NCBI RefSeq assembly: GCF_001677475.2
Contig: NZ_CP015229.1
Source of the DNA: Escherichia coli
GTDB lineage: Bacteria > Pseudomonadota > Gammaproteobacteria > Enterobacterales > Enterobacteriaceae
Direction: 5' to 3' (one strand)
Length of the DNA stretch: 64,000 bases
Shown here: positions 8,759-47,254 of the stretch, piece after piece
Numbering within the stretch: position 1 is the stretch's first letter
Layout of the letters: every line of letters begins with the position of its first letter
The notes under the pieces: model-generated
Told to the model about the DNA's origin: nothing
Databases searched by the model: none
Seen by the model: only the letters and a program-made list of their open reading frames with translations
Translations under genes and position numbers: made by a program

Positions 8759-10720
8759 GTGACCGTATCTTCTCATCGACTTGAACTGTTAAGCCCGGCA
8801 CGCGATGCCGCCATTGCCCGCGAAGCTATTTTGCACGGTGCCGATGCTGTTTATATCGGCGGCCCTGGTTTTGGTGCCCGTCATAATGCCAGTAATAGCC
8901 TGAAAGATATTGCCGAGCTGGTGCCGTTTGCCCATCGTTATGGTGCAAAAATTTTCGTCACGCTTAACACCATTCTGCATGATGATGAGCTTGAACCCGC
9001 GCAACGGCTGATTACCGACCTCTACCAGACCGGCGTCGATGCGCTGATTGTTCAGGATATGGGGATTCTGGAACTTGATATTCCGCCGATTGAACTGCAC
9101 GCCAGTACGCAGTGCGACATTCGCACGGTAGAGAAAGCGAAGTTCCTTTCTGATGTTGGCTTCACGCAGATTGTGCTGGCACGAGAGCTGAATCTTGAGC
9201 AGATCCGCGCGATTCACCAGGCCACGGACGCGACCATTGAATTCTTTATTCATGGCGCACTGTGCGTGGCCTATTCGGGTCAGTGCTACATTTCTCATGC
9301 GCAAACAGGGCGTAGCGCCAACCGTGGCGATTGCTCGCAGGCGTGCCGTTTGCCATACACATTGAAAGACGATCAGGGGCGGGTGGTTTCCTATGAAAAA
9401 CATCTGCTGTCGATGAAAGATAACGATCAGACTGCCAACCTCGGCGCGCTGATTGATGCTGGCGTACGCTCCTTCAAGATTGAAGGGCGTTACAAAGATA
9501 TGAGCTACGTGAAGAATATCACCGCCCATTATCGCCAGATGCTGGATGCCATTATTGAAGAACGTAGCGATTTGGCGCGAGCTTCATCCGGTCGTACTGA
9601 GCACTTCTTCGTACCGTCGACGGAAAAAACCTTCCATCGTGGCAGCACCGACTACTTTGTTAACGCGCGTAAAGGCGATATTGGCGCATTCGATTCACCG
9701 AAATTTATCGGCCTGCCGGTGGGTGAAGTATTGAAAGTGGCGAAAGATCATCTTGATGTTGAGGTTACCGAACCGCTGGCTAACGGCGATGGACTGAACG
9801 TAATGATTAAGCGTGAAGTCGTCGGCTTTCGTGCCAACACGGTAGAGAAAACTGGGGAAAATCAGTACCGCGTCTGGCCAAATGAGATGCCAGTGGAGCT
9901 GCACAAAATTCGCCCGCACCATCCGCTTAATCGCAACCTCGACCATAACTGGCAGCAGGCGTTGACCAAAACCTCCAGCGAACGTCGGGTGGCGGTAGAC
10001 ATTGAACTGGGCGGCTGGCAGGAACAACTGATTCTGACTCTGACCAGCGAAGAGGGCGTCAGTATCACTCATACGCTGGACGGGCAGTTCGACGAAGCGA
10101 ATAACGCCGAAAAAGCACTCCTCAATCTGAAAGAGGGATTGTCGAAGCTTGGGCAAACCCTCTATTACGCCCGCGATGTGCAAATTAATTTGCCGGGGGC
10201 GCTGTTTGTACCAAACAGTCTGTTAAACCAGTTCCGCCGTGAAGCTGCCGACATGCTGGATGCTGCACGTCTTGCCAGTTACCAGCGGGGCAGCCGTAAA
10301 CCGGTTGCTGATCCTGCGCCGGTTTATCCGCAAACGCATCTGAGTTTCCTCGCGAACGTATACAACCAGAAAGCGCGTGAATTTTATCATCGCTATGGTG
10401 TGCAGCTGATTGACGCGGCGTATGAGGCACATGAAGAGAAGGGCGAAGTCCCGGTGATGATCACCAAGCATTGTCTGCGCTTTGCCTTTAATCTGTGCCC
10501 GAAACAGGCGAAAGGCAATATCAAAAGCTGGAAGGCGACGCCAATGCAACTGGTTAACGGCGATGAAGTGTTAACGCTGAAATTTGATTGCCGCCCATGC
10601 GAGATGCACGTCATTGGCAAAATCAAAAATCACATACTGAAAATGCCGTTACCGGGAAGCGTAGTGGCATCCGTAAGTCCGGATGAGCTGCTGAAAACAT
10701 TGCCGAAGCGAAAAGGGTAA
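8759..10720 (+). CDS. rlhA: Peptidase U32 family protein RlhA/YdcP (23S rRNA C2501 hydroxylation)
   Basis: 653 aa if initiated at GTG 8759, the recalled YdcP length; the track ORF begins at 8717; U32 family by sequence recall. Confidence 0.85.
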   Translation: MTVSSHRLELLSPARDAAIAREAILHGADAVYIGGPGFGARHNASNSLKDIAELVPFAHRYGAKIFVTLNTILHDDELEPAQRLITDLYQTGVDALIVQDMGILELDIPPIELHASTQCDIRTVEKAKFLSDVGFTQIVLARELNLEQIRAIHQATDATIEFFIHGALCVAYSGQCYISHAQTGRSANRGDCSQACRLPYTLKDDQGRVVSYEKHLLSMKDNDQTANLGALIDAGVRSFKIEGRYKDMSYVKNITAHYRQMLDAIIEERSDLARASSGRTEHFFVPSTEKTFHRGSTDYFVNARKGDIGAFDSPKFIGLPVGEVLKVAKDHLDVEVTEPLANGDGLNVMIKREVVGFRANTVEKTGENQYRVWPNEMPVELHKIRPHHPLNRNLDHNWQQALTKTSSERRVAVDIELGGWQEQLILTLTSEEGVSITHTLDGQFDEANNAEKALLNLKEGLSKLGQTLYYARDVQINLPGALFVPNSLLNQFRREAADMLDAARLASYQRGSRKPVADPAPVYPQTHLSFLANVYNQKAREFYHRYGVQLIDAAYEAHEEKGEVPVMITKHCLRFAFNLCPKQAKGNIKSWKATPMQLVNGDEVLTLKFDCRPCEMHVIGKIKNHILKMPLPGSVVASVSPDELLKTLPKRKG

Positions 10721-17555: not shown

Positions 17556-18980
17556 ATGCAACATAAGTTACTGATTAACGGAGAACTGGTCAGCGGCGAA
17601 GGGGAAAAACAGCCTGTCTATAATCCGGCAACGGGGGACGTTTTACTGGAGATTGCCGAGGCATCCGCAGAGCAGGTCGATGCTGCTGTGCGCGCGGCAG
17701 ATGCAGCATTTGCCGAATGGGGGCAAACCACGCCGAAAGTGCGTGCGGAATGCCTGCTGAAACTGGCTGATGTTATCGAAGAAAATGGTCAGGTTTTTGC
17801 CGAACTGGAGTCCCGTAATTGTGGCAAACCGCTGCATAGTGCGTTCAATGATGAAATTCCGGCGATTGTCGATGTCTTTCGCTTTTTCGCCGGAGCAGCT
17901 CGCTGCCTGCATGGTCTGGCGGCAGGTGAATATCTTGAAGGTCATACTTCGATGATCCGTCGCGATCCGTTGGGGGTCGTGGCTTCTATCGCACCGTGGA
18001 ATTATCCGCTGATGATGGCTGCGTGGAAACTGGCTCCGGCGCTGGCGGCAGGGAACTGCGTAGTGCTCAAACCATCAGAAATTACCCCGCTGACCGCGTT
18101 GAAGTTGGCAGAGCTGGCGAAAGATATCTTCCCGGCAGGCGTGATTAACGTACTGTTTGGCAGAGGCAAAACGGTGGGAGATCCGCTGACCGGACATCCC
18201 AAAGTGCGGATGGTGTCGCTGACGGGCTCTATCGCCACTGGCGAGCACATCATCAGCCATACCGCGCCGTCCATAAAGCGTACTCATATGGAACTTGGAG
18301 GCAAAGCGCCAGTGATAGTTTTTGATGATGCGGATATTGAAGCGGTGGTCGAAGGTGTACGTACTTTTGGCTATTACAATGCCGGACAGGATTGTACAGC
18401 GGCTTGTCGGATCTATGCGCAAAAAGCCATTTACGATACGCTGGTGGAAAAACTTGGTGCTGCAGTGGCAACGTTAAAATCGGGTGCACCGGATGACGAG
18501 TCTACGGAGCTTGGACCTTTAAGCTCGCTGGCGCATCTCGAACGCGTCAGCAAAGCGGTAGAAGAGGCGAAAGCGACAGGGCACATCAAAGTGATCACTG
18601 GCGGTGAAAAGCGCAAGGGTAATGGCTATTACTATGCGCCGACGCTACTGGCTGGCGCATTACAGGACGATGCCATCGTGCAAAAAGAGGTATTTGGTCC
18701 GGTAGTGAGTGTTACCCTCTTCGACAACGAAGAACAGGTGGTGAACTGGGCAAATGACAGCCAGTACGGACTTGCATCCTCGGTATGGACGAAAGATGTG
18801 GGCAGGGCGCATCGCGTCAGCTCGCGGCTGCAATATGGTTGTACCTGGGTCAATACCCATTTCATGCTGGTAAGTGAAATGCCGCACGGTGGGCAGAAAC
18901 TTTCTGGTTACGGCAAGGATATGTCACTTTATGGGCTGGAGGATTACACCGTCGTCCGCCACGTCATGGTTAAACATTAA
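17556..18980 (+). CDS. patD: Gamma-aminobutyraldehyde dehydrogenase (aldehyde dehydrogenase family)
   Basis: 474 aa; aldehyde dehydrogenase motifs ELGGKAP and catalytic cysteine region; K-12 synteny. Confidence 0.92.
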
Positions 18981-19076
18981 GGATAATATTGCAGATCGTA
19001 AGAGTATGAGAAGATCTTGCGTACTGTCAGAGAGTTGATTTCTCTGACAGTACGTGTTGCGTGCAAAATCACTACA

Positions 19077-19172
19077 TCAAATAAACCAGCCAAATCTCAT
19101 AGAGATAAGAGTAAACAAACCAACAGCAGCAAAGACATTTATCAGTACTACAGTTCTACTGGAAACATTCAT
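19077..19172 (-). CDS. yncL: Small membrane protein YncL
   Basis: 31-aa ORF read from the reverse strand (MNVSSRTVVLINVFAAVGLFTLISMRFGWFI); single hydrophobic helix; absent from ORF track (too short). Confidence 0.7.
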   Translation of the reverse strand: MNVSSRTVVLINVFAAVGLFTLISMRFGWFI

Positions 19173-19366
19173 TTTTGCCACCTTTTATCATTGCCCCTAT
19201 GTGTATAGTACGGGTTAAGAAAATCCGCAATAATACTCATTCTGAAGATGGATAAGGGCAAGTTGCTGTTTGATGATTTTTTCTCAAACCGGTTAAAAAA
19301 CTTGATGTACATCAAAAAATGACGCATATTTGCGCGCGTTTTATTCATCTGGCTGGACGCCCGTAC

Positions 19367-19540
19367 ATGTCTTTCTATCAACACATGCTTGTTTTTTATG
19401 CGGTTATGGCAGCAATCGCATTTCTTATCACCTGGTTTCTTTCTCACGATAAGAAACGCATCCGTTTCTTAAGCGCCTTTCTGGTGGGGGCAACATGGCC
19501 GATGAGTTTCCCGGTGGCGCTGTTGTTTTCACTGTTTTAA
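19367..19540 (+). CDS. ortT: Orphan toxin OrtT (YdcX), small membrane protein
   Basis: 57 aa from ATG 19367 (MSFYQHMLVFYAVMAAIAFLITWF...); the track ORF has a 16-codon extension. Confidence 0.8.
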   Translation: MSFYQHMLVFYAVMAAIAFLITWFLSHDKKRIRFLSAFLVGATWPMSFPVALLFSLF

Positions 19541-19625
19541 ATCTTATGCATTGGCTTGACGGCACCACGCAGACTTATATCATTTGGATGAATCGATAAA
19601 TTTCACAAGTGGCTAAGGAGAAAGT

Positions 19626-19859
19626 ATGTCGCATCTGGATGAAGTCATCGCGCGCGTGGATGCCGCGATTGAAGAGAGCGTCATTGCCCATATGAACGAA
19701 TTATTAATCGCCCTGAGCGATGACGCGGAGTTAAGTCGGGAAGATCGCTACACCCAGCAGCAGCGTTTGCGCACCGCTATTGCTCATCACGGTCGCAAGC
19801 ATAAAGAAGATATGGAAGCGCGCCACGAACAGTTAACCAAAGGCGGCACCATCCTCTGA
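19626..19859 (+). CDS. ydcY: Small protein YdcY
   Basis: 77 aa; K-12 synteny. Confidence 0.8.
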   Translation: MSHLDEVIARVDAAIEESVIAHMNELLIALSDDAELSREDRYTQQQRLRTAIAHHGRKHKEDMEARHEQLTKGGTIL

Positions 19860-44336: not shown

Positions 44337-45093
44337 AACCCTCATCCCGAAAGAGGCGCTGGCGTGGCTGAAGGCGAAGAAGCTGCGCCCCGGTTTTGAT
44401 TACCGGGATGTGTGGCGGGAAGAACACCGGAACAGCTTCACCGTGGCAAAAATGCTGCAACTGGATTTGTTGTCGGATGTGAAATCCCTTGTGGAAGACG
44501 CCCTGCAAAGCGGGCAGACGTTCAGCGAGTTCCGGGAGATGCTGCAACCGCTGCTGATAAAACGCGGATGGTGGGGCGTACAGGAGATGGATGATCCGCT
44601 GACGGGCGAAAGGCGCACCGTGCAACTGGGCAGCGACCGCCGCCTCCGCACGATTTTTGACACCAACATGCGCACCGCCCGCGCGGCGGGCCAGTGGGAA
44701 CGCATTCAGCGGACAAAGCGGGCCATGCCGTATCTGATTTATGAGCTGGGGCCATCCCGCGAGCACCGGGCGGAGCATGTGAAATGGGCGCGTCTGTGTC
44801 TGCCTGTAGACCACCCGTTCTGGCAGACGCATTTCGCCCCTAACGGCTGGGGCTGCAAATGCACCATCCGTCAGGTCAGCCGTGGTGAGTATGCGCAACT
44901 GGCGGCACAGGGCACCATTCACACCGAAGCGCCGGAAATCAGGACTGTCCGCTGGGTGAACAAACGTACGGGCGAAGAGGAAGAGGTGCCGGAAGGGATT
45001 GATCCGGGCTGGAACTACAATCCCGGTATAAACCGTGAGCAGGAGCTGGCGCGCCAGCTGGCGACAAAACAGGCCCGTTTTGACAGTGAGTAA
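44329..45093 (+). CDS. Head morphogenesis protein (Mu F family)
   Basis: 254 aa from ATG 44329 overlapping the portal stop. Confidence 0.85.
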   Translation: MRETLIPKEALAWLKAKKLRPGFDYRDVWREEHRNSFTVAKMLQLDLLSDVKSLVEDALQSGQTFSEFREMLQPLLIKRGWWGVQEMDDPLTGERRTVQLGSDRRLRTIFDTNMRTARAAGQWERIQRTKRAMPYLIYELGPSREHRAEHVKWARLCLPVDHPFWQTHFAPNGWGCKCTIRQVSRGEYAQLAAQGTIHTEAPEIRTVRWVNKRTGEEEEVPEGIDPGWNYNPGINREQELARQLATKQARFDSE

Positions 45094-47200: not shown

Positions 47201-47236
47201 GCAGTTAAAAGGCGCTGCGAATGCCCTTTTAACTGC
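47201..47236 (+). terminator. Stem-loop after the major capsid gene (terminator or attenuator candidate)
   Basis: GCAGTTAAAAGG...CCCTTTTAACTGC inverted repeat 25 bp after the capsid stop, followed by the palindrome GCCTTTTAAAAGGC. Confidence 0.4.
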
Positions 47237-47254
47237 CTTTTAAAAGGCAGAGTC

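Follow-up and report, generated by a model that had tools for sequence, protein, structure and literature searches.

FNR is the [4Fe-4S] oxygen sensor of the CRP/FNR family; with its cluster in place it binds DNA as a homodimer (PMC4214427), and its consensus operator is TTGAT-N4-ATCAA (Grainger 2007). Most FNR sites activate from a position centred at -41.5 (Federowicz 2014, main text), as at the class II promoters of narK, nirB, yfiD and dmsA, and the synthetic promoter FF-41.5 (pGS422), used in vitro, has a consensus FNR site engineered at -41.5 to activate (PMC4214427). FNR-repressed promoters have sites from -125.5 to +1 (Myers 2013), and those of ndh and cydAB (category 2 of Myers) carry perfect or near-perfect boxes in or beside the core promoter.

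The product of ortT (ydcX) has been described as a toxin without an antitoxin, and the paper describing it asked how the cell restrains OrtT (PMC4344625). Since that paper makes no mention of FNR, ChIP tables are the only place where the oxygen sensor has been connected with this orphan toxin. Three independent studies have shown FNR in vivo, under anaerobiosis, on the K-12 site between yncL and ydcX, which has one half-site mismatch. Grainger 2007 (ChIP-chip) reported a peak at ydcX with the motif AAAACTTGATGCACGTCAAAAAAT, and Myers 2013 (ChIP-seq and ChIP-chip) reported a yncL/ydcX peak with the predicted site TTGATGCACGTCAA and a PatSer score of 14.54, the loss of ChIP signal in delta-fnr being a control already present in that study. 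Federowicz 2014 (ChIP-chip) recorded an Fnr region with a signal-to-noise ratio of 55.7 under fermentation and 32.8 under nitrate. The site centre printed by Grainger, 1,515,344.5, disagrees by 10 bp with the Myers and Kim coordinates, and the printed sequence settles the identity of the site. In Federowicz 2014, Tables S5 (ArcA-motif) and S6 (Fnr-motif) give an identical line for the ydcX peak, namely ATGAACGAATTATTA at 1515738-1515752, a position within ydcY. Neither listing has the TTGAT box for this peak, and the two tables look duplicate. The ArcA Tables S1 and S2 of the same study hold no ydcX entry.

A consensus FNR box between yncL and ortT

Our analysis covers a stretch of 64,000 nucleotides of Escherichia coli DNA (assembly GCF_001677475.2, contig NZ_CP015229.1), hereafter the window, in which yncL and ortT diverge from a 194-bp spacer; both names follow the RefSeq annotation of matching E. 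coli genomes. A first-pass annotation, made from the sequence alone, had pointed out a perfect 14-bp palindrome upstream of ortT in this divergent intergenic region and proposed it as a candidate operator for a dimeric regulator of the toxin gene. The sequence check bears out both the palindrome, TTGATGTACATCAA at 19302-19315, and its setting: the yncL ATG is at 19172 (minus strand) and the ortT ATG at 19367 (plus strand), with 51 nt between the last base of the palindrome and the latter. The centre of the palindrome, 19308.5, is 58.5 nt upstream of the ortT ATG. The features of the region, in window coordinates, are:

19077..19172, minus strand: yncL coding sequence, the divergent neighbour, with its transcription start site (TSS) at 19195
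19295..19301, plus strand: A-tract plus C (AAAAAAC) flanking the box; 0.6-1.7 bits, C19301 in 78/82 sequences
19302..19307, plus strand: predicted -35 hexamer of ortT, TTGATG, 17 bp upstream of CATATT and equal to the left FNR half-site
19302..19315, no strand: box TTGAT-GTAC-ATCAA with both half-sites perfect, assigned to FNR from the consensus match, ChIP of the K-12 ortholog and conservation
19325..19330, plus strand: predicted -10 hexamer of ortT, CATATT, ending 7 nt before the mapped TSS; CATATT in 75/82 sequences
19331..19337, plus strand: GC-rich discriminator TGCGCGC between the -10 hexamer and the TSS; GCGCGCG conserved across genera
19338, plus strand: ortT TSS, transferred from K-12 TSS 1515384 by sequence identity
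19367..19540, plus strand: ortT (ydcX) coding sequence, 57 aa, orphan membrane toxin (PMC4344625)

Palindromy by itself was rejected as evidence, as perfect 14-bp palindromes number 4 in the window and 300 first-order Markov simulations yield 4.5 on average. What stands above chance is the exact match to TTGAT-N4-ATCAA, observed once against 0.06 expected per 64 kb, along with the constant place that the box keeps ahead of ortT in 78 of 80 other species. All 10 specified bases of the FNR inverted repeat are matched, and a search tolerating 2 mismatches finds no second copy of TTGATGTACATCAA in the window. An inverted-repeat scan set to a minimum length of 10 does not list the palindrome, whose arms are 7 bp. 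The central GTAC, which is the source of the perfect palindromy, is incidental, as other species are free to differ in the 4-bp spacer (26 different versions among 82 sequences). The other perfect palindromes of 14-16 bp are GCAAATTAATTTGC, AGCTGGCGCGCCAGCT and TGCCTTTTAAAAGGCA (10180-10193, 45044-45059 and 47234-47249). FNR-like boxes with one mismatch to TTGAT-N4-ATCAA also occur at window positions 1014, 1140, 25893, 35424 and 36182, and those with at most 2 mismatches number 41 against a simulated mean of 31.8, i.e., near expectation.

A position weight matrix built from 62 other ChIP-bound K-12 sites of Myers Table S6 gives the window allele 19.84 bits, which ranks it 3 of 60 ChIP-bound K-12 sites, next to the class II yfiD and narK/nirB sites with which it shares the operator consensus; the K-12 allele scores 15.75 bits (rank 22). 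The FF-41.5 site has the same 14 bp, letter for letter (PMC4214427), the difference being that the ortT site is natural and centred at -29.5 from its mapped start. We are therefore close to certain that the palindrome is an FNR site.

That it is a chance sequence, or the site of another regulator such as CRP, another CRP/FNR paralog or an autorepressor of the toxin-antitoxin style, is barely credible to us. It could be said for this alternative that 14-bp palindromes occur in the window at the chance rate and that CRP sites are related in sequence to those of FNR; against it, the dyad is conserved across species, FNR ChIP signal was found in three studies, and the CRP core TGTGA-N6-TCACA is matched, by eye, at just 3 of 5 positions per half. 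When the box was compared by eye with the consensus sequences for CRP, TyrR, PurR, NsrR and NarL, none fitted. A toxin-antitoxin autorepressor operator was rejected on the ground that OrtT has no antitoxin partner (PMC4344625).

The proposal of an operator for a dimeric regulator had named no regulator; FNR, a homodimeric DNA binder whose consensus operator is this 14-mer, now takes that place, and the proposal further gains from the ChIP occupancy of the K-12 ortholog, from the position of the box on the -35 of the ortT promoter and from the fact that the box tracks ortT with or without yncL. The palindrome is thus an instance of a textbook operator and no new element, and FNR binding there was already known from K-12.

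Conservation across Enterobacterales and the target gene

We compared 80 OrtT loci from Enterobacterales, one per GTDB species, covering Escherichia, Citrobacter, Salmonella, Enterobacter, Kosakonia, Lelliottia, Leclercia, Phytobacter, Pantoea, Mixta, Cedecea and other genera. The sequences were stacked gap-free on the box, and comparisons of 82 sequences add the window and K-12. An FNR box with at most 2 mismatches is present 54.5-60.5 nt upstream of the ortT ATG in 78 of the 80 species, and 36 of the 82 boxes are perfect. The half-site columns are nearly invariant (TTGA 82/82, T5 80/82, TCA 81-82/82), the exception being the first base of the right half-site, which is A (44/82) or G (35/82) about equally. 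Information content amounts to about 2 bits in the half-sites and 0.2-1 bit in the spacer. Across the 82 sequences we thus find what is expected of an FNR operator, namely two conserved half-sites, a free spacer and a fixed position relative to the promoter.

The promoter elements are conserved along with the dyad. TTGATn, corresponding to the -35, is present in 80/82 sequences, and a second invariant block, made up of GCATA(T)T and then GCGCGCG, begins at a constant 9 nt after ATCAA. Besides CATATT, the -10 position is occupied by CATAGT, CATAAT, CATTAT or CATGTT, with A at the second and T at the last position invariant, a pattern that reads as a -10 signature. Conservation between genera stops at the A-tract flank, and the stretch from there towards yncL is unconserved. 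Decayed boxes with 3 mismatches, TTGAAGCCCGTCAC and TTGATATACGCCAC, were seen at just two loci, L063 (a Pluralibacter MAG) and L079 (Buttiauxella), both of which have kept CATAAT or CATATT.

The gene neighbourhood of ortT is far more variable: of 81 ortT loci, only 26 have yncL as the divergent neighbour, ydcY is confined to Escherichia, and patD lies at varying distances. Because the dyad and the -10 keep their position in 78 of 80 species while yncL is adjacent in just 26 of 81 loci, the box very likely belongs to ortT and not to yncL. For the box to regulate yncL, or both genes, rather than ortT alone, FNR would have to act from a centre 113.5 bp upstream of the yncL TSS (-113.5), across sequence that the genera do not share, and the box would have to be kept for another reason at the 55 of 81 ortT loci that lack yncL and still have it; yncL is also N/D in both conditions in Federowicz 2014. 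We regard this assignment as highly improbable.

Three Pantoea loci (L070-L072) retain the box as TTGATCTGGATCAC, centred at -57.5 from the ATG, which indicates that the operator moves with the gene. The ydcX/ortT gene of Pantoea sp. MT58 is carried on a plasmid and shows a fitness effect of -1.7 in anoxic contaminated groundwater (PMC11467524).

Proposed architecture of the ortT promoter

Transcription starts have been mapped for both genes in K-12 (Kim et al. 2012, Table S1): ydcX starts at 1515384 (37 reads, 29-nt leader) and yncL at 1515241 (56 reads, 23-nt leader). We transferred them with the offset window = K-12 minus 1,496,046, which was verified against the gene start and the Myers site coordinate. 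The ortT promoter was set from this published TSS and not from a generic promoter scan, which did not call it, with 8/12 matches for TTGATG/CATATT against a threshold of 9. Around the TSS, the predicted promoter consists of TTGATG, a 17-bp spacer, CATATT and a GC-rich discriminator. As TTGATG sits 17 bp upstream of CATATT, the left FNR half-site would also be the -35 hexamer. The box is centred at -29.5 from the ortT TSS and spans -36 to -23, covering that hexamer. The ortT TSS was detected in M9 glucose cultures taken as aerobic, in which FNR is inactive (Kim 2012), and the promoter is therefore independent of FNR. The AAAAAAC flank, judged from its sequence, may extend the FNR site or serve as a proximal UP-like element.

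An RNA role of the palindrome was also considered and rejected: the box is part of neither mRNA because it lies upstream of both mapped TSSs, and an Rfam search of 18900-19700 returned no match. On the minus strand, 19322-19339 could form a weak terminator-like hairpin (5 pairs and an 8-nt loop, followed by a T-run) that overlaps the ortT -10 and discriminator; it probably arises only because the GC-rich block lies beside the A-run.

The promoter that would be freed by loss of FNR also bears features resembling those of stress sigma factors. Positions 19301-19329 can be read as sigma-32-like (CTTGAT, a 15-nt spacer and aCgCATaT), a fit to the sigma-32 consensus CTTGAA ... CCCCATnT. G19324 and C19325 are invariant, for which the sigma-70 consensus offers no explanation. 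GC-rich discriminators are typical of promoters inhibited by ppGpp/DksA. The conserved GCGCGCG discriminator contrasts with the reported induction of ortT during the stringent response (PMC4344625). Heat-shock induction of ortT has been described as well (Islam 2015), and a genomic SELEX study gave a strong peak for the RpoS holoenzyme (28.5) within the yncL/ydcX spacer, at 1515332.

Repression, activation or silent binding

The geometry of the site favours anaerobic promoter occlusion over class II activation, the direction of the effect being unproven. Taken as a whole, the best explanation of the locus is, in our judgement, an FNR operator on the ortT core promoter that acts by occlusion, and we consider this reading probable; for its central element, repression by occlusion as the effect of FNR, we see about an even chance. 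The box overlaps core elements of an FNR-independent promoter, the -35 included, and resembles in this geometry the FNR-repressed ndh and cydAB; it differs from them in that no FNR-dependent expression change was recorded for ortT by Myers. In the absence of oxygen, dimeric holo-FNR on the box (-36 to -23) would block sigma region 4 and RNA polymerase at the -35 and spacer, and ortT transcription would be lowered. Exposure to O2 or NO costs FNR its cluster and, with it, the dimer. By this mechanism (PMC4214427), either gas would strip FNR of its cluster, the monomers would leave the DNA, and the ortT promoter would be freed.

Published expression data bear on this model in both directions. In anaerobic CFT073 lacking hmp, nrfA and norVW, ydcX went up 11.85-fold with nitrate, a source of endogenous NO. 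It rose alongside the cyo and sdh genes, and the authors credited some of the effects to inactivation of FNR by NO. This nitrate induction of ydcX fits repression. Against repression, Myers 2013 Table S9 lists the yncL/ydcX peak without an FNR-dependent expression change in anaerobic glucose minimal medium, with the target classed as "Indistinguishable", and Federowicz 2014 gives [ydcX, ydcY] as 'Activation' by Fnr when nitrate is respired, a sign opposite to repression, and as N/D under fermentation. At only 174 nt, the gene may have been dropped by filters or covered badly by probes in expression data. It is here that the operator proposed in the first-pass annotation is limited, in that K-12 shows no FNR-dependent change in one study and 'Activation', under nitrate only, in the other. 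The supplements of Sastry 2019 hold no ydcX/ortT entry. An indirect effect may lie behind the 'Activation', since nitrate respiration is closed to a delta-fnr strain; our conjecture is that such a strain does not produce the nitrate-derived signal responsible for the ydcX induction in CFT073.

Taken at face value, the same label would agree with a class II activator site at -41.5, driving a second, anaerobic-only ortT start near window 19350 and turning the toxin on without oxygen. Such an arrangement would place the box where most FNR sites activate from, the 58.5 nt to the ATG would give room for a usable 17-nt leader that contains a GGA Shine-Dalgarno, and the mapped TSS data come only from the M9 glucose cultures taken as aerobic. 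However, the only mapped TSS, 19338, puts the box at -29.5, i.e., 12 bp closer to the start than a class II site and coincident with the -35 hexamer, and no TSS is listed near 19350 (Kim 2012). A class II promoter would also need its -10 some 29-35 bp downstream of the centre; the sequence found there (19338-19345) is a variable T-run without a conserved A at -11, whereas the invariant CATATT is 13 bp too close. The site therefore has neither the centre near -41.5 nor the suitably placed -10 of a class II promoter. Furthermore, ydcX did not decrease in delta-fnr (Myers), and nitrate, with its endogenous NO, raises rather than lowers ydcX in CFT073. We consider class II activation unlikely.

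The absence of an FNR-dependent change in Myers Table S9 could also mean that FNR binds here with little or no transcriptional consequence, the site being silent or only conditionally relevant, an interpretation put forward for many ChIP targets. The abstract of Grainger 2007 notes targets on which FNR has little impact, the gene was not identified by transcriptome analysis in Table 2 of that study, and an IHF ChIP signal overlaps the box. This reading has to contend with half-sites kept at about 2 bits and at a fixed spacing to the -10 over about 80 species, in genera with different neighbours, and we think it quite unlikely.

If occlusion is the correct reading, FNR would gate a membrane toxin that has no antitoxin. 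In the gut, where oxygen is lacking, FNR bound at the ortT -35 would hold the toxin gene silent, and O2 or host NO would free the promoter and slow growth under oxidative or nitrosative stress; the circuit would be conserved across Enterobacterales, with natural alleles tuning its tightness. We offer this physiological picture tentatively, as a possibility rather than an expectation. Still, an FNR operator on the ortT -35 that is strongly occupied in K-12 and deeply conserved provides a concrete hypothesis of oxygen- and NO-gated repression. The repression model, if true, would explain a long-standing entry of the K-12 ChIP lists in which FNR binds but nothing happens.

Allelic variation of the operator

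Over 3.2 kb the window is 97.2% identical to K-12, compared with at most 89% for other Escherichia species, which places it in E. coli sensu stricto, and the closest of 5426 complete E. coli genomes is 98.1% identical over 8 kb. The K-12 yncL/ydcX FNR site occupies the orthologous position, at the same distance from ortT as in the window. The K-12 box, TTGATGCACGTCAA, differs from that of the window at two bases: at 19308, in the spacer, K-12 has C where the window has T, and at 19311, where the right half-site begins, it has G where the window has A. It is because of these two substitutions that the window has both a perfect consensus and a perfect palindrome. From 19312 to 19372 the window and K-12 are identical, and from 19295 to 19372 only the two bases within the box differ.

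We counted the alleles in the 5426 complete genomes with 40-mers seeding only on an exact allele match:

TTGATGTACATCAA (window allele): 9 genomes of 5426
TTGATGCACGTCAA (K-12 allele): 4811 genomes of 5426
TTGATGTACGTCAA: 453 genomes of 5426
TTGATGCACATCAA: 32 genomes of 5426

The perfect palindrome is thus a rare variant of the common K-12 FNR site and, by the matrix scores, a stronger one. With the window allele being the stronger of the two, FNR occupancy at least at the K-12 level would be expected.

The window and K-12 differ at four positions of the 194-bp spacer (19290, 19294, 19308 and 19311), which all fall within 22 bp, in and just upstream of the box. Such clustering could reflect a recombination patch or local selection on operator strength. 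Beyond the spacer, OrtT residue 3 (window 19373) is Phe (TTC) in the window and Leu (CTC) in K-12.
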